Of a stretch of 64,000 bases of DNA, positions 5,528 through 55,315 are shown one piece after another. Each line of letters begins with the position of its first letter. Position 1 is the stretch's first letter. Source of the DNA: an uncultured Candidatus Saccharibacteria bacterium (lineage in GTDB: Bacteria; Patescibacteriota; Minisyncoccia; SW-4-49-11); NCBI GenBank assembly GCA_964646465.1, contig CAZYEN010000029.1, positions 2,670-66,669 on the forward strand, written 5' to 3'. The notes below the pieces were generated by a model. That model was not told the origin of the DNA, searched no databases, and saw nothing but the letters and a program-made list of their open reading frames with translations. A program made the translations under genes and the position numbers.

Positions 5528-6631
5528 TTGAAAAGTAAATTAGATAATATTATGCAAGATAAGCAAACTAAACTTTTACCGGTGACGGTATTATCTGGAT
5601 TCTTAGGTAGTGGGAAAACCACTCTTCTTAATGCCATTCTCAAAAATAGGCAGGGTCTTAAGGTTGCTGTGATCGTGAATGATATGTCTGAAGTGAATAT
5701 TGATGCTGAATTGGTAGCTAATAATGAAGTCTCTCTAAGTCAGACTGAGGAAAAGTTAGTAGAGCTCAGCAATGGATGTATTTGTTGTACATTGCGGGAA
5801 GATTTATTGGTGGAGGTGAAAAAATTAGCTCAAGAAAATCGTTTTGATTATCTCGTGATTGAATCTACAGGAATATCTGAACCATTACCTATTGCTGAAA
5901 CTTTTACTTTTGATGATGAGTCTGGAGATATTTTGTCTAATTTCGCAAGATTAGATACTATGGTGACGGTGGTAGATACGGCTAATTTTATGAATTATCT
6001 TGCCTCAGAAGATCAGCTTAAAGATACTGATGAATCTCTTGGGGAAGAGGATACCCGAACCATTGTAGGACTCCTTACAGATCAAATTGAATTTGCTGAT
6101 GTGATTGTATTATCTAAAGTGGATTTGGTGGATAAGGGAACTGTGGGTACTATTCGAGGTATTGTAACCAAGCTTAACCCTGATGCCAGAATTATTGAAG
6201 CGGTGAAAGGCGATATTCCTCTTAATGAGATTCTCAATACCGGATTATTTGATTTTGATAAGGCTTCTCAAAATGTGGGGTGGCTCAAAGAGATGCGAGG
6301 AGAACATACTCCAGAAACTGAGGAATATGGCATTAGTAGTTTTGTCTATGAGTCCAAAAAGCCTTTTGATAGACAAAAGCTGATGGAATTATTGCAAAAT
6401 GGTACACTACAGGGCGTAGTCCGATCTAAAGGGTTTGCTTGGGATAATTCTGACCTTACGACAGCTTTATTATGGTCTCAAGCAGGGAATATTATCAATC
6501 TAGACCCGTATGGATATTGGAGTAAATCTAAGAGTGGGTATATTAAGGGGGAGCAAAAAATTGTCTTTATTGGAGCTAATATGGATAAAAAAGCTATTGC
6601 AGAAGCTTTAGATAAGTGTTTGGGGATATGA
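5528..6631 (+). CDS. COG0523 (CobW/YciC/ZigA-like) metallochaperone GTPase
   Basis: P-loop GFLGSGKTT, the CxCC metal motif GCICCTL, and a CobW C-terminal domain. Confidence 0.85.
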   Translation: MKSKLDNIMQDKQTKLLPVTVLSGFLGSGKTTLLNAILKNRQGLKVAVIVNDMSEVNIDAELVANNEVSLSQTEEKLVELSNGCICCTLREDLLVEVKKLAQENRFDYLVIESTGISEPLPIAETFTFDDESGDILSNFARLDTMVTVVDTANFMNYLASEDQLKDTDESLGEEDTRTIVGLLTDQIEFADVIVLSKVDLVDKGTVGTIRGIVTKLNPDARIIEAVKGDIPLNEILNTGLFDFDKASQNVGWLKEMRGEHTPETEEYGISSFVYESKKPFDRQKLMELLQNGTLQGVVRSKGFAWDNSDLTTALLWSQAGNIINLDPYGYWSKSKSGYIKGEQKIVFIGANMDKKAIAEALDKCLGI

Positions 6632-45610: not shown

Positions 45611-46825
45611 TTATATTTGATCGAAAGAAACTATGTTCCCATTGATCTCTACTCCATTTTGAGAAATGCTTTTAGAGCTAATAATAACTCTTTTATTAAT
45701 TCCGAGTAAATCAGCTTCTGCGAATTTTATGCCAGGTCTTTCATTACGGTTATCGAATAAAACGCTTTGATTATTTTCTTTAAGATTATCATATAGTTCC
45801 CCGGCTTTTTGCATAACTTCTACCGAGTCCGTGTTTAGGGCGATAAGATGAATGTTAAAGGGGCTAACCTCAACAGGCCACTTCATTTTAGCTTCATTTT
45901 CAGCAAAAACCTCTACTAAAGTTCCCATTAATCTAGAAATTCCAATTCCATAACATCCCATAATTACAGGTTTATTTATACCATTCTCATCAGTAAATTC
46001 TAAGTCAAAAGCTTCAGAGTATTTTGTTTGTAATTTGAATATATTTCCAACTTCAATGGATTGTCTTTGAGTTAAATCAGAGTTATTACACTCAGGACAA
46101 GTTTTTTGTTCTTCTATAATTTCTTTATTGATAGCAATATTACATTTTTCACATATAAAAATCGTATCTTCTCCAATATCAGATATGGTTTGGAATTCGT
46201 GAGAATATTTACTAAAAGTACCGCCTGAAGCATAAGTCTTAAGAGTAATATCACCAATACCAAGCCTTTTATAAATGTTCAAGTAGGCTTGAGTTACGAT
46301 CTCGTAATATGTATCTAAATCTTCAGAAGAACTATGAAAGGAATATAAATCTTTCATAATAAACTCTCGACCTCTTAATATGCCTGATTTTGCCCTTTTT
46401 TCATCCCTAAATTTAGTTTGAATTTGATAAGCAGCTAAAGGTAAATCTTGATATGATTGAATAAGATTTTTTGCTATAGGTGTTATAATCTCTTCATGAG
46501 TAGAACCTAAAGCTAACTCTGTTGAAGTGTAGTAAGAAGTAAATCTGTAAAGTACATCTAAACTATCCCATCTACCAGTTTTTTCCCAATAAGATTTTGG
46601 TTGTAAGGCTGGTAACAATAGTTCTTGAGCTGATATTTTATTAAGTTCTTGTCTCACTATACTTTCAATATTTTGTAAAACACGATAACCTAATGGTAGG
46701 TAAGCATAAACTCCAGCCATAACTTGTTCCACGTAGCCTGCTTTTATTAGAATTTTGGCGTTTAAAGACTCTTCAGATTGAGATATATATTTTCTAGTTT
46801 TTGAAATTAATTCAGATTGATACAT
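45611..46825 (-). CDS. proS: Prolyl-tRNA synthetase, bacterial type, lacking the INS editing domain (a CxxC...CPEC mini-insert is present instead)
   Basis: Motif 2 reads QIQTKFRDEKRAKSGILRGREFIMKDLYSFH and motif 3 reads GCYGIGISR. The protein is only 404 aa. Confidence 0.8.
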   Translation of the reverse strand: MYQSELISKTRKYISQSEESLNAKILIKAGYVEQVMAGVYAYLPLGYRVLQNIESIVRQELNKISAQELLLPALQPKSYWEKTGRWDSLDVLYRFTSYYTSTELALGSTHEEIITPIAKNLIQSYQDLPLAAYQIQTKFRDEKRAKSGILRGREFIMKDLYSFHSSSEDLDTYYEIVTQAYLNIYKRLGIGDITLKTYASGGTFSKYSHEFQTISDIGEDTIFICEKCNIAINKEIIEEQKTCPECNNSDLTQRQSIEVGNIFKLQTKYSEAFDLEFTDENGINKPVIMGCYGIGISRLMGTLVEVFAENEAKMKWPVEVSPFNIHLIALNTDSVEVMQKAGELYDNLKENNQSVLFDNRNERPGIKFAEADLLGINKRVIISSKSISQNGVEINGNIVSFDQI

Positions 46826-46833
46826 ATTAAGTT

Positions 46834-47295
46834 TTAATTATTAAGTAAGGTACTTATTTTATCTTGAGGGAAGTATTTCATAACAATGTGCCATACTGGT
46901 TTGCGATATTCATGTAGAAATTTTTCAATTTTATTTTGAGATACCCATAGAAATCCTCCTAATTCTCGTCTATCTACTCTAATTGATTGGGTTCCTCCAT
47001 TGAACCGTAACAACATAATGGTTTGCTCTTGTCCTAAGTTTTCGTCCCTGATTAATCTTTTAGGAAAATAGAAAGTGTGTTTTTCTGGACATTTATCCAA
47101 AATTGTAAAATCAGTAGTGTTTAATTCTTCTCCTAACTCTCTTATTATGGCTTCTTCATGAGTTTCATTTTCATTAACTCCGCCTTGAGGAAATTGCCAG
47201 TGTAGAGGGTCATTTGCCCTAGATACAATTAATACATTTTCATCTTTATCGAATATGATTGCTAGTACATTTTTTCTTAGCTTACCATAGGACAT
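46834..47295 (-). CDS. Nudix hydrolase
   Basis: The Nudix box reads QGGVNENETHEEAIIRELGEELN, matching GX5EX7REUXEEXGU. The gene lies 8 nt upstream of proS on the same strand. Confidence 0.75.
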   Translation of the reverse strand: MSYGKLRKNVLAIIFDKDENVLIVSRANDPLHWQFPQGGVNENETHEEAIIRELGEELNTTDFTILDKCPEKHTFYFPKRLIRDENLGQEQTIMLLRFNGGTQSIRVDRRELGGFLWVSQNKIEKFLHEYRKPVWHIVMKYFPQDKISTLLNN

Positions 47296-50883: not shown

Positions 50884-51642
50884 ATGGCTTATACCTTAGT
50901 GTTAATGCGACATGGAGAGAGTGTTTGGAATCAGCTAGATAAATTTACTGGTTGGACTGATGTTGAATTATCTACTAAAGGTATTCAAGAAGCGAAAACA
51001 GCTGGGGTAATGTTGCTACAAAATGGTTTTGAATTTGATATAGCTTATACTTCTATGTTAGATAGAGCTATAGATACATTACAATATGCATTAGAAGGAG
51101 CCCATATGACCTGGATACCTGTCGTTAAGGACTGGCATCTCAACGAAAGACATTATGGCGGTTTGCAGGGTAAAAATAAAGCTGAATCTATAGATGAATT
51201 TGGAGAGTATCAGGTAAAAGTGTGGAGAAGAGCATTTGCTATTAAACCTCCATTATTATCTGAGTATGATTCTAGATATCCTGCTAATGATGAGAGATAC
51301 ATTGATATCCCAGCTGAACAACTTCCTATTGGAGAGTCTCTCAAGGATACTTTAGATAGAGTTCAGCCATATTGGGAATCAGAGTTAAAACCAGCTATTT
51401 TATCTGGCAAAAGGTTAGTTATTTCAGCTCACGGTAATAGTTTAAGAGCTCTGTTGAAATTTTTAGAAAATATTTCAGATAATAAAATTATTGATATAGA
51501 AATACCAACTGGAAATCCATTGATTTATGAATTAGAAGAACATACATTAAAAGTTTTAAAGAAATATTACTTAATAGATATAAAAAATAAAAGTAATAAA
51601 AATATATTTAGTAAATTGAAATCTATTTTTAAATTAACTTAA
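50884..51642 (+). CDS. gpmA: 2,3-bisphosphoglycerate-dependent phosphoglycerate mutase
   Basis: LMRHGESVWN ... ERHYG, the histidine phosphatase signature of dPGM. Confidence 0.85.
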   Translation: MAYTLVLMRHGESVWNQLDKFTGWTDVELSTKGIQEAKTAGVMLLQNGFEFDIAYTSMLDRAIDTLQYALEGAHMTWIPVVKDWHLNERHYGGLQGKNKAESIDEFGEYQVKVWRRAFAIKPPLLSEYDSRYPANDERYIDIPAEQLPIGESLKDTLDRVQPYWESELKPAILSGKRLVISAHGNSLRALLKFLENISDNKIIDIEIPTGNPLIYELEEHTLKVLKKYYLIDIKNKSNKNIFSKLKSIFKLT

Positions 51643-51645
51643 ATT

Positions 51646-52323
51646 ATGTCAAAGATTATTTTAGTAAGACATGGTGATAGTCAATGGGATCAAGAAAATA
51701 GATTTATAGGTTGGGTAGATGTTCCGTTATTGGAAAGGAAAGATTTACTTAAGAATATAGGTAACGTATTATTAAATAATAATACGGATATAGATGTTGT
51801 TATAACATCAACATTAGAAAGATCAATTGTAAGTGCTTGGACTATTATGAATAGTATGTATCATTCTTGGATAACAGAAATACATGATTGGCGACTAAAC
51901 CCAAGACATTATGGAATAATACAGGGCTTAACCTATCAAGAGGCTATTTTAAAATACCCTAATATTAATGAGATTAATTTGAGTTGGGATCAAACGGTAA
52001 ACCCAATTGCATTAGATGATAAAAATCATCCCAGGTATGATAGGAGGTATTCTAATGTAGAACCAGAAAAATTACCTTCAGTTGAAAGTTTAAAAGATGT
52101 TTATTCAAGGGTAGAGACTTTCATTACAGATGTCTTATTGCCAATCTTGGCTAAAAATGAGAATATTTTAATTGTTGCTCATCATGATAGTATTCGTTCT
52201 ATATTAAAATATTTTCAAAAATTATCGATTGAGGATACTATTGCATTTAATATTAATCCTTCTCATTCTATAGTATTAGAGTATGATGCTAATACAGGAA
52301 TATCAACTCAATCTCTCTTATAA
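51646..52323 (+). CDS. Histidine-phosphatase (dPGM-family) paralog
   Basis: LVRHGDSQWD ... PRHYG. It is a tandem paralog of gpmA with a shortened C-terminus. Confidence 0.75.
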   Translation: MSKIILVRHGDSQWDQENRFIGWVDVPLLERKDLLKNIGNVLLNNNTDIDVVITSTLERSIVSAWTIMNSMYHSWITEIHDWRLNPRHYGIIQGLTYQEAILKYPNINEINLSWDQTVNPIALDDKNHPRYDRRYSNVEPEKLPSVESLKDVYSRVETFITDVLLPILAKNENILIVAHHDSIRSILKYFQKLSIEDTIAFNINPSHSIVLEYDANTGISTQSLL

Positions 52324-52345: not shown

Positions 52346-55315
52346 ATGTATAATCATAGAATTATTGAACAGAAATGGGTTCAAAAGTGGTCCGAGGGAT
52401 TTGTAGATTACACAATTAATCCTCAAACATCTGAGGATAAAAAATATATTTTAGTTGAATTCCCTTTCCCTTCAGGAGCTGGACTTCATGTAGGACATAT
52501 CAGAAGTTATGTAGCTCAGGACATTAAAGCTAGAATATATAGAATGCAAGGAAATCAGGTGTTATATCCCATAGGTTGGGATGCTTTTGGTTTGCCAACA
52601 GAAAATTATGCTATTAAAAATAATATATCCCCAGCAGTAGCAACAGCAGATAATATAAAGAATTTTAAAAAACAATTAGCAGTCCTAGGGTTGTCTTTTG
52701 ATTGGAGTCGTGAAATCAATACCACTGACCCTAAATATTATAAATGGACTCAATGGATTTGGCTACAAATGTTTAAGTCAGGCCTTGCCTATCAAGATAC
52801 CACTCAAGTTTGGTGGTGTGAAGAATTAAAGACTGTCTTAGCTAATGAAGAGGTGATTGATGGTAAATCAGAGCGGGGAGGACATCCTTGTATTAGAGTT
52901 CCACTTCGGCAATGGATGTTAGCTATTACTAAGTATGCAGATAGATTAGACCGAGATTTAGAAAAAGTAGATTATTTACCAATTATCAAAACTCAACAAA
53001 GAAATTGGATAGGACGTAGTGAGGGGTTTGAGTTAAAATTTCAAGTTCAAGATATAGATCAGAATATAGAAATATTCACCACTAGAATCGATACTATTTT
53101 TGGAGTGACTTTTTTAGTTTTAGCTCCGGAACATCCACTTTTAGATAAAATTGTAAAAGCAGAATATAAGAATCAAGTTAAAGAGTATCAAGAGCAAACA
53201 AAATCTAAAAGTGATCTTGACAGACAACAAAGTAAAGATAAAACCGGGGTATTTACTGGAGCTTATGCTATACATCCACTAACAGAAGAACTAATCCCAA
53301 TTTGGATAGCTGATTATGTATTGGCAAGTTATGGTACAGGGGCTATAATGGCGGTCCCTGCCCACGATGAGAGAGATCAGGAATTTGCCAAAGAGTTTGG
53401 ATTATCTATTAAGCAGGTAGTTGCTCAATATACTACTCTTACAGGGCAAGATGCTCCAAAGAGTGATGAAAATATTGTGGAATTTGATGCTGCAACGGTA
53501 ATTATTAAACATTGGGTAGAAGAGTTATATTATGTCGTTCAATTTAGTAATAAAGCACAAGGTTTTGTTGGGGGGCATGTTGAATTAGGTGAGACAACAG
53601 AACAAACCGCAATTCGTGAGACGGCAGAAGAATCTGGATATATAGATATTAAAAATATTGAGCAGCTTATAGCACATGCATATGGCCGTGGATATAAGCC
53701 ACGTAAATCAAGAGAGGAATTATGCCATGATTCTCTTTACTTAATACATTTGAAAAGTGGTGAGAGGGTTGATGTTAATGATCATGAGATTAAAAATGGT
53801 GACTGGCTGAGTGCAGAAGAAATTGTAAGATCACAATTATTTTCTGATGGACACCGTTTATTTTTTGAATATTATCTCAATCAAAAACCATTTACAGGGT
53901 ATGGAAAACTTGTTAACTCAGGAGAATTTGATGGACTATTTTCAGAAGAGGCAAAGAAATCTATTATTACAATATTAGAAGAGCAAAATATCGGACACAG
54001 AAAAGTCCAATATAAACTTCGTGATTGGGTTTTCTCCAGACAAAGATATTGGGGAGAACCATTTCCTATTGTTTGGATAATTGAAGAGCATTATAAAAAA
54101 ATATCAGGAGAGATTGCTAGATTTTTACCTAGTCAAGCAGTAACTAGAGAAATAGAGGGGGTATTGCAGTATGCTGTCCCAATTGCAGTTTCAGATTTGC
54201 CATTAGAATTACCAGAAGTAGATTCTTATGTCCCTCAAGGATTAGGTGAAAGCCCATTAGCTCAAGCTACAGATTGGTTAGAAGTTTGGTATAATGTCCA
54301 AACTGGCCAAGCCATATCCAGGCAAAATCACAAGCCAGATAGTAATTGGGTAGAAGCCTTACGAGAAACCGATACAATGCCTAATTGGGCAGGAAGTTCT
54401 TGGTATTATCTTAGATATATTGATCCTAATAATGATGAGAAATTAGCTGACCCAGAATTATTAAAAAATTGGCTACCAGTATACTTATATAATGGAGGAA
54501 TGGAGCATGTTACATTACATCTATTATATTCAAGATTTTGGCATAAATTTTTATATGATATTGGAGTAGTCCATACCATAGAACCATATCAGACCAGAAT
54601 TAAGCACGGTATGATTTTAGCTGAAGGTGGTGTAAAAATGTCCAAGTCCAAAGGGAATACTGTTGACCCGATTGAAATGGTAGAGTCATTTGGAGCAGAT
54701 TCTCTGAGAGTTTATGAAATGTTTATGGGGCCTTATGATGAAGCCATAGCTTGGGACACTAAAGGTTTAATTGGATGTAGTCGCTTTTTAAAAAGAATCT
54801 ATCAATGGGTAAATGATATGAAAGAGCAAAAATTACAACCCAATAATGATAAAGCTAATCTAGACTATGAGACACATTCATTAATCAAGAAAATTACTCA
54901 AGATATAGATAATCAGAAATATAATACTTGTGTTAGTAGTTTGATGGAATATCTTAATTTATACAATACTCAAGATATAGGTATAGATAATATTAAAATA
55001 TATATTAAATTATTAGCTCCATTTGCCCCACATTTAACAGAAGAATTATGGGAAATAGTAGGGGAGAAGAATACAGTACATAAGTCCATATGGCCAATTT
55101 ATGATGATACTAAATTAGTCCAAAGCCAGTTAGATTATCAAATCCATATCAATGGTAAAATGCGAGATATCATCACAGTATCGAATGCATCCAACGAGGA
55201 AGAAATTCAAATACAAGCCCTCAACTCAGACAAAGTAAAACATATTCTGTCAGACAATATTCCAAAAAAAATTATAATAAATCAAGATAAACAAATAGTA
55301 ATAATTATTGTATAG
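52346..55315 (+). CDS. leuS: Leucyl-tRNA synthetase with a ~155-aa MutT-like Nudix domain inserted after the CP1 editing domain
   Basis: HVGH, the CP1 region TTRIDT...GTGAIMAVPAHDERD and KMSKS are all present. Between GLSIKQVV and LVNSGEFDGL there is an extra segment with the Nudix box GGHVELGETTEQTAIRETAEESGY. Confidence 0.9.
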   Translation: MYNHRIIEQKWVQKWSEGFVDYTINPQTSEDKKYILVEFPFPSGAGLHVGHIRSYVAQDIKARIYRMQGNQVLYPIGWDAFGLPTENYAIKNNISPAVATADNIKNFKKQLAVLGLSFDWSREINTTDPKYYKWTQWIWLQMFKSGLAYQDTTQVWWCEELKTVLANEEVIDGKSERGGHPCIRVPLRQWMLAITKYADRLDRDLEKVDYLPIIKTQQRNWIGRSEGFELKFQVQDIDQNIEIFTTRIDTIFGVTFLVLAPEHPLLDKIVKAEYKNQVKEYQEQTKSKSDLDRQQSKDKTGVFTGAYAIHPLTEELIPIWIADYVLASYGTGAIMAVPAHDERDQEFAKEFGLSIKQVVAQYTTLTGQDAPKSDENIVEFDAATVIIKHWVEELYYVVQFSNKAQGFVGGHVELGETTEQTAIRETAEESGYIDIKNIEQLIAHAYGRGYKPRKSREELCHDSLYLIHLKSGERVDVNDHEIKNGDWLSAEEIVRSQLFSDGHRLFFEYYLNQKPFTGYGKLVNSGEFDGLFSEEAKKSIITILEEQNIGHRKVQYKLRDWVFSRQRYWGEPFPIVWIIEEHYKKISGEIARFLPSQAVTREIEGVLQYAVPIAVSDLPLELPEVDSYVPQGLGESPLAQATDWLEVWYNVQTGQAISRQNHKPDSNWVEALRETDTMPNWAGSSWYYLRYIDPNNDEKLADPELLKNWLPVYLYNGGMEHVTLHLLYSRFWHKFLYDIGVVHTIEPYQTRIKHGMILAEGGVKMSKSKGNTVDPIEMVESFGADSLRVYEMFMGPYDEAIAWDTKGLIGCSRFLKRIYQWVNDMKEQKLQPNNDKANLDYETHSLIKKITQDIDNQKYNTCVSSLMEYLNLYNTQDIGIDNIKIYIKLLAPFAPHLTEELWEIVGEKNTVHKSIWPIYDDTKLVQSQLDYQIHINGKMRDIITVSNASNEEEIQIQALNSDKVKHILSDNIPKKIIINQDKQIVIIIV

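Follow-up and report, generated by a model that had tools for sequence, protein, structure and literature searches.

A Nudix hydrolase domain nested in the editing domain of leucyl-tRNA synthetase behaves as an exchangeable cassette

The stretch of DNA analysed here (the window; 64,000 nucleotides of contig CAZYEN010000029.1 from an uncultured Candidatus Saccharibacteria bacterium) encodes a leucyl-tRNA synthetase (LeuRS, gene leuS) in which a surface loop of the editing domain, connective peptide 1 (CP1), is replaced by a Nudix hydrolase domain. The domain is present or absent among near-identical strains, varies together with the adjoining CP1 sequence, and recurs at the same loop in LeuRS from the candidate phyla radiation (CPR) and the DPANN archaea. 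We consider both the architecture and its behaviour as a cassette to be extremely likely.

A Nudix domain within CP1 of a bacterial-type LeuRS

The insert matches the Nudix family PF00293 with 47.6 bits in the whole protein and with 51.9 bits (E 1e-13) when taken alone, against a gathering score of 21.1, which bears out the original prediction of a Nudix domain inserted in LeuRS. When the leuS product was aligned to LeuRS from Thermus thermophilus (PDB: 1H3N, E 7e-188), residues 2-360 paired with 4-363 and residues 517-576 with 378-437, leaving 156 amino acids in place of a 14-residue loop. The junctions read ...KQVVA/QYTT... and ...FTGYG/KLVN..., and the insert starts 17 residues past the universal Asp344. 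Close orthologues that lack the Nudix domain (Nudix-minus, as opposed to Nudix-plus) are shorter by exactly 157 amino acids (471 nt). The editing-domain model PF13603 is interrupted by the insert at profile position 144 of 185. The Nudix domain is therefore nested inside CP1 and does not occupy the linker that follows it, where it had been placed originally.

The segment FVGGHVELGETTEQTAIRETAEESGY (aa 407-432, nt 53564-53641) contains the almost textbook Nudix box that had been pointed out, and the preceding strands carry the motif ATVIIKHWVEELYYVVQF (aa 383-400), likewise as described. Measured against the consensus GX5EX7REUXEEXGU, the two U positions are T426 and Y432 instead of I, L or V. 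Thirty-one inserts were aligned that are 16-89% identical to this one, most of them only 16-35%. G410, E425, E428, E429 and W487 are invariant among them, and conservation reaches at least 90% for R424, G431 and K454; a few family members are substituted at R424 or E416. Invariance of these five residues across such divergent inserts argues for a working hydrolase. The AlphaFold2 model of full-length LeuRS has a pLDDT of 89.4 and a pTM of 0.79, and the alpha/beta/alpha Nudix fold of the insert is predicted with high confidence. Its neighbours in the fold search include the nucleoside triphosphate (NTP) pyrophosphohydrolases NudI/YfaO, YmfB and MutT, with RppH also among the matches. The insert is thus a genuine Nudix domain, in frame within a canonical LeuRS and apparently catalytically intact; that it is a competent enzyme is likely.

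The description of the domain as MutT-like holds in the generic Nudix sense and fails in the specific one. Neither MutT equivalog was reached (TIGR00586, 19.9-22.6 bits with a cutoff of 97.9; NF008044, 17.6-21 bits with a cutoff of 148), and the match to them covers the Nudix box only. The NudC equivalog NF001299 was not reached either (28 bits, cutoff 158), and the insert scored far below the cutoffs of the YtkD and RppH models. The motif SQPWPFPxS, given in a review of the Nudix clan (PMC5389931) as the mark of the NAD(H) diphosphatase NudC downstream of the box, is not present in IDIKNIEQLIAHAYGRGYKPRKSREE, the corresponding segment of the insert. The LeuRS-type Nudix clade has a distinctive N-terminal segment of its own, DAPxSDE...KHWxEExYY.

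The host enzyme is a bacterial-type LeuRS (Table 1). The model TIGR00396 (leuS_bact) scores 918 bits, with a cutoff of 548, in a match broken into three stretches. The HIGH and KMSKS signatures, the T-rich motif and the universal Asp within GTGAIMAVPAHDERD are all retained, as predicted. An alignment of 69 LeuRS sequences (A1) was used to assess their conservation, and the editing and synthetic motifs are intact in Nudix-plus and Nudix-minus alleles alike. Guanine-cytosine content shows no shift across the insert. The leucine-specific domain, which lies before KMSKS in most but not all LeuRS, had been listed among the retained elements. It is absent: in the alignment to 1H3N, T. thermophilus residues 581-636 are without counterpart, and residue 760 leads to residue 764 through ...LAEGG-VKMSKS.

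Table 1. Features of leuS and its insert; positions are those of the window.
Feature	Position	Strand	Basis
leuS, bacterial-type LeuRS hosting the insert	52346..55315	+	single continuous open reading frame (ORF), 989 aa; TIGR00396
HIGH signature HVGH, aa 48-51	52487..52498	+	read in sequence; H48, G50, H51 invariant in A1
CP1 editing domain, N-terminal part, ~aa 219-360	53000..53425	+	PF13603 profile positions 1-144 = aa 219-363
T-rich motif TTRIDT, aa 245-250	53078..53095	+	T245, T246, R247, D249, T250 invariant in A1
GTGAIMAVPAHDERD, aa 330-344, ending with universal Asp344	53333..53377	+	D344 invariant in A1
Recombination cassette, Nudix and adjoining CP1 flanks	53378..53970	+	tract differing between Nudix-plus and Nudix-minus alleles
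Nudix hydrolase domain nested in CP1, aa 361-516	53426..53893	+	PF00293; alignment with 1H3N
Nudix box G410-x5-E416-x7-R424-E425-T-x-E428-E429-x-G431-Y432	53573..53641	+	read directly from sequence
CP1 C-terminal part and return to catalytic core, aa 517-560, GKLVNSGEFDGL...KLRDW	53894..54025	+	aligns with T. thermophilus 378-437; PF13603 in two stretches
KMSKS signature, aa 764-768, LAEGG directly before	54635..54649	+	K764, M765, S766, K767 invariant in A1

The T-rich motif reads TTRIDT instead of the usual TTRPDT. This variant is unrelated to the insert, because Nudix-minus near relatives (for example, P0014) share the substitution. Relatives such as P0066 show a CxxC...CxxC zinc motif in the region corresponding to 54074..54361 (aa 577-672); here the region is longer and cysteine-free, as in close relatives within the lineage.

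The window also encodes a free-standing Nudix protein of 153 aa (46834..47295, minus strand; PF00293, 61 bits). It was judged RppH/NudH-like from its WQFPQGG...REL.EE motif and falls outside the clade of the LeuRS insert, whose family hidden Markov model gives it 52 bits. It lies directly upstream of, and in the same orientation as, a 404-aa ORF (45611..46825, minus strand) that resembles a class II prolyl-tRNA synthetase by eye.

Exchange of the cassette between LeuRS alleles

Nudix-plus and Nudix-minus alleles interleave on a neighbour-joining tree of LeuRS bodies that was computed with the insert region removed. Pairs of opposite state include P0005 and P0038, P0002 and P0014, and P0007 and P0041, the first of each pair carrying the domain. 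Identities of body and insert to the window are discordant as well: for P0006 the body is 76% and the insert 95% identical, and for P0004 the values are 89% and 63%. The flanks of Nudix-plus alleles are closer to those of distant Nudix-plus LeuRS than to those of their own nearest Nudix-minus relatives.

Comparisons at the DNA level locate the exchanged tract. The locus of the Nudix-minus orthologue P0014 (L023) shares the window's gene order recA, His_Phos, His_Phos, leuS and is 88-95% identical to the window outside approximately 53378-53970, within which the two cannot be aligned. Loci L024 (Nudix-minus) and L025 (Nudix-plus) have the same gene order and are ~99% identical over 12.5 kb; their sole major difference is a 471-nt indel with diverged flanks, which together correspond to positions 348-560 of LeuRS. 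Synonymous divergence (dS) of L025 from the window is 0.073 for the insert, against 1.14-1.43 for the LeuRS body; identity is 97-100% across nt 53381-53785 and ~78% in the rest of the gene. With dS differing ~15-20-fold within one gene, leuS is a mosaic in these lineages and therefore a hazardous phylogenomic marker in them.

The two tandem ORFs that follow recA directly upstream of leuS (50884..51642 and 51646..52323, plus strand) are separated by gaps of a few bases. Their counterparts in L023-L025 are annotated as His_Phos_1 (phosphoglycerate-mutase-like), and the arrangement is conserved in those loci.

We infer that a cassette of ~0.5-0.6 kb, made up of the Nudix domain and its adjoining CP1 flanks, moves between LeuRS alleles through homologous recombination, for which the conserved flanking motifs AVPAHDERD and RDWVFSRQRYWGEP would serve as anchors. 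Exchange of this kind would leave the Nudix domain present in some and absent from other near-identical strains.

The insert has a ratio of nonsynonymous to synonymous divergence (dN/dS) of 0.32-0.66, compared with 0.10-0.16 for the body, and it is therefore under selection that is weaker or more diversifying than that on the body. This elevated ratio, together with the few members substituted at R424 or E416, could also be read as the mark of a non-catalytic insert with a structural, regulatory or protein-binding role; non-enzymatic Nudix domains do exist according to the Nudix-clan review (PMC5389931). Such a pseudo-Nudix is hard to reconcile with the invariance of the metal-binding E425, E428 and E429 in all 31 inserts and with the high-confidence fold prediction. 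Only chance-level terminal repeats were found around the insert, and a Pfam scan of LeuRS returned no intein, endonuclease or mobile-element family, on which grounds a transposon or an intein was rejected. An assembly artefact, raised as a concern at the outset, was rejected as well: the frame is continuous, the allele recurs in many independent contigs and assemblies, and P0005 lies on at least 24 independent contigs. Taken together, a non-catalytic insert, an artefact, an intein or a mobile element is extremely unlikely.

Spread across CPR and DPANN and sister cassettes

PF00293 is present in 58 of the 120 LeuRS clusters listed as best matches to the full protein, with labels that include Paceibacterota and Harrisonbacteria. 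An exhaustive phmmer search of 1.84 billion cluster representatives, with the insert as query, retrieved just 169 proteins at E<=1e-3. Fifty-nine of the matches are at least 400 aa long, and BLASTP to the LeuRS body identified 52 of them as clearly LeuRS and two more weakly as class I synthetases (P0213 and P0247), with five giving no such match. A word search with the insert alone yielded 55 candidates and no significant one, which reflects a limit of the word index, since the full-length search and phmmer found relatives.

Genomes were scanned with a profile of the type-A subset of inserts (alignment A3). All 22 loci recovered are LeuRS ORFs, of 945-1196 codons. In 20 loci the Nudix match lies 361-410 codons into the frame; L006 and L018, each of which has an extra insert upstream, show it 502-550 codons in. 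The loci derive from Paceibacterota, Paceibacteria, Sungiibacteriota, Adlerbacteria, other Patescibacteria and DPANN archaea such as Woesearchaeota. The insert thus belongs to a Nudix clade that is found almost only inside LeuRS, at the same loop, across CPR and DPANN. The survey of related lineages called for at the outset therefore showed the same CP1-nested Nudix recurring in both groups, and the rarity that the original prediction implied was not upheld.

Relatives of the insert that stand free are few (for example, P0125 and P0128, ~160 aa). Two larger stand-alone proteins combine such domains: P0124 (379 aa) consists of three tandem LeuRS-type Nudix repeats, and P0123 (311 aa) joins a LeuRS-type Nudix to a second, different Nudix domain. 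The module therefore exists outside synthetases too.

Six loci from metagenome-assembled genomes labelled archaeon or Woesearchaeota (L012-L016 and L019) encode a bacterial-type LeuRS with a CP1-nested Nudix of the type-B variant, with matches near 6001-6498 in most. Their occurrence under archaeal labels suggests whole-gene transfer between CPR and DPANN, or mis-binning.

Related synthetases carry other nested domains, which were identified by Pfam scans or, for P0052, from precomputed annotation. A HAD_2 domain is nested in the close relatives P0020 and P0052 (PF13419, aa 242-397) at a second CP1 site, flanked by RSEGxE and FTTRxDT, and it is present or absent between the sister alleles P0019/P0020 and P0048/P0052. 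P0067 combines Ham1p_like (aa 246-376) with a Nudix domain. P0069, P0104 and P0111 have two Nudix domains each (one of those in P0104 at aa 933-1058), and P0111 also bears a serine hydrolase (PF06821, aa 752-919). The IleRS-like P0213 has both a Nudix and a His_Phos_1 domain inserted within the synthetase. Besides the second CP1 site, such domains, second or third Nudix domains among them, occupy one site past the catalytic core and another immediately ahead of the anticodon-binding domain in relatives.

This variety would fit a Nudix domain that is a hitch-hiking house-cleaning enzyme and sanitises the general nucleotide pool, acting on oxidised or deaminated NTPs or ADP-sugars without functional coupling to LeuRS. 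Such families were reportedly classed as house-cleaning enzymes by Galperin and colleagues in 2006, and the NTP pyrophosphohydrolases NudI/YfaO, YmfB and MutT are structural neighbours of the insert. LeuRS could then be a convenient carrier, with CP1 loops that tolerate insertions and an essential gene that guarantees expression in a reduced genome. Lineage-specific insertions in CP1 are indeed tolerated at 25-45 Å from the editing site (PMC5038320). The near-confinement of the clade to one loop of LeuRS in CPR and DPANN is nevertheless hard to explain without some coupling, and a core sanitising function is not expected to vary by presence and absence among 99%-identical strains. We consider this explanation rather unlikely.

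Possible function and known parallels

The best overall explanation, which we hold with moderate confidence, is an accessory Nudix cassette in CP1 of LeuRS that acts on a substrate of the dinucleoside polyphosphate type. A complete and probably catalytically competent Nudix pyrophosphohydrolase domain has replaced the CP1 surface loop of a normal bacterial-type LeuRS in a Paceibacteria (CPR) genome. The synthetase would aminoacylate and edit with or without it, and the Nudix domain would serve as an accessory module tethered to LeuRS and outside amino-acid proofreading. Nudix enzymes cleave the diphosphate bond of a nucleoside diphosphate linked to another moiety X. The most likely substrate of the insert would be a dinucleoside polyphosphate or a related adenylylated compound of this kind, of the diadenosine tetraphosphate (Ap4A) or general ApnA type that synthetases generate, so that clearance of Ap4A is plausible. 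The assignment of the substrate class by itself is tentative, and we regard it as possible rather than probable.

The profile of the insert family matches several PDB entries with E values of 1e-11 to 1e-9, namely AvrM14, two uncharacterised MutT/Nudix proteins and the Ap4A hydrolases CT771, Aquifex 3I7U and lupin 1F3Y. The Ap4A hydrolases score 2.5e-10 to 1e-9, and AvrM14 and the uncharacterised proteins are equal or better, with AvrM14-A/B best. AvrM14 is an effector that we take to be an RNA-decapping Nudix enzyme. Two tyrosines follow the box, Y446 at +14 and Y450, in the X-loop, at +18, and the column of Y450 is aromatic in most of the 31 inserts. According to the Nudix-clan review, an X-loop Tyr ~17 aa downstream of the box correlates with ApnA activity (Srouji 2017, PMC5389931). 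A basic patch, RGYKxRKxRE, is a further conserved feature of type-A inserts. Together, these leads point weakly to dinucleoside polyphosphates or RNA ends.

RNA ends are the targets in a second explanation, by which the tethered Nudix, along with the HAD, His-phosphatase or esterase domains of relatives, would remove damaging groups such as a 3'-pyrophosphate, a nucleotide cap or ADP-ribose from tRNA or other RNA and so protect translation from toxins or phages. Among the compounds that Nudix enzymes such as Thermus Ndx8 cleave is (p)ppGpp, and the CCA end of tRNA is the target that toxSAS toxins pyrophosphorylate. The insertions sit in the domain that binds A76 and the tRNA 3' end, and both AvrM14-A/B, the best PDB profile match, and RppH, among the fold matches, fit this explanation. 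The locus also has the look of an arms race: presence varies between strains, cassettes are exchanged horizontally, two CP1 sites accept alternative cassettes, and dN/dS exceeds that of the host gene. Searches for a link to defence returned nothing specific, however. PADLOC gave only one generic Nudix-box match and PHROGs only generic Nudix families, tblastn against 50,697 phage records found no phage homologue, and the conserved neighbourhood contains no linked toxin or immunity gene. Ham1, one of the sister cassettes, acts on free NTPs. We therefore judge end repair or counter-toxin activity to be unlikely.

A broader version of the same idea takes in all the cassettes. We speculate that CP1 of class Ia synthetases in CPR and DPANN (LeuRS and at least one IleRS-like protein) could be a platform on which phosphohydrolases and esterases (Nudix, HAD, Ham1, His-phosphatase and serine hydrolase) dock as cassettes that are exchanged horizontally and vary between strains. 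With CP1 gripping the acceptor end of tRNA, these could repair or de-modify tRNA and RNA ends, or destroy nucleotide toxins that target the synthetase. This is improbable on present evidence; if true, it would amount to a previously unrecognised layer of defence or repair centred on translation.

Besides clearance of Ap4A, the original prediction had named a pre-transfer editing function, in which the Nudix domain hydrolyses mis-activated aminoacyl-adenylates such as norvalyl- or isoleucyl-adenylate. In favour of this, the Nudix domain forms a physical part of the editing domain, and the adenylate on which it would act is one that the same enzyme releases. An acyl-adenylate is, however, a mixed anhydride that lacks the diphosphate bridge defining Nudix substrates. 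The insert lies in CP1 and not beside the synthetic site, and Nudix-plus and Nudix-minus alleles alike retain the canonical residues for post-transfer editing. The Nudix domain is moreover dispensable at the strain level, and hence probably for LeuRS fidelity, because strains ~99% identical over 12.5 kb have LeuRS with or without it. Pre-transfer editing is accordingly very unlikely, and an accessory module directed at dinucleoside polyphosphates remains our preferred explanation.

Few genes are as conserved as those of aminoacyl-tRNA synthetases, whose editing domains are drug targets. A complete second enzyme nested in CP1, which recurs in two superphyla of ultra-small symbionts, is swapped between strains and has sister hydrolase cassettes, points to unexpected plasticity in a core translation enzyme. 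Matched Nudix-plus and Nudix-minus alleles in isogenic backgrounds constitute a natural experiment. Their direct comparison might show what becomes of synthetase by-products such as Ap4A, of damaged nucleotides or of damaged tRNA in organisms with minimal genomes.

Precomputed Pfam annotations already show the architecture, yet it appears to be undescribed. In keeping with the original prediction, no description of a LeuRS-Nudix or any other synthetase-Nudix architecture was found in open-access papers and bioRxiv, including a term search of the Nudix-clan review (PMC5389931), although a report elsewhere is possible. A synthetase with an accessory domain is a kind of protein already known, and the cassette behaviour is the most surprising element.

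Several known systems offer partial parallels. For the host enzyme, a study of Mycoplasma mobile LeuRS (PMC3643597) describes a protein that also lacks the leucine-specific domain and has the peptide GKDG in its place. The two enzymes are alike in having a short peptide before KMSKS (GKDG there, EGG here; window 54613..54649, aa 757-768). They differ in that this LeuRS has a CP1 with all editing motifs, and the parallel does not extend to the Nudix domain. Lineage-specific insertions in CP1 are known as I1ae-I4ae in archaea and eukaryotes and as Iax1-3 in apicomplexans; they are structural, with no known editing role (PMC5038320). Like the insert described here, they add polypeptide at surface positions of CP1 and leave the editing core intact. 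Unlike it, they are short and have no enzymatic fold, whereas the insert is a complete, strain-variable Nudix domain of 156 aa with a conserved catalytic triad.

The family NF040702 (isoleucine--tRNA ligase, N-acetyltransferase domain-containing) likewise joins a class Ia housekeeping synthetase and an unrelated catalytic domain in one polypeptide, but the partner is a GNAT domain rather than a Nudix and the synthetase is IleRS rather than LeuRS. The free-standing Nudix hydrolases Aquifex 3I7U, Chlamydia CT771, T. thermophilus Ndx1 and E. coli RppH, which are among the best profile or structural matches, share the fold and the Nudix box with the insert, which also has an aromatic residue in the X-loop. 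Identity to them is only 15-24%, and the subfamilies are not separable by score. They are separate proteins, whereas the clade described here resides inside LeuRS.

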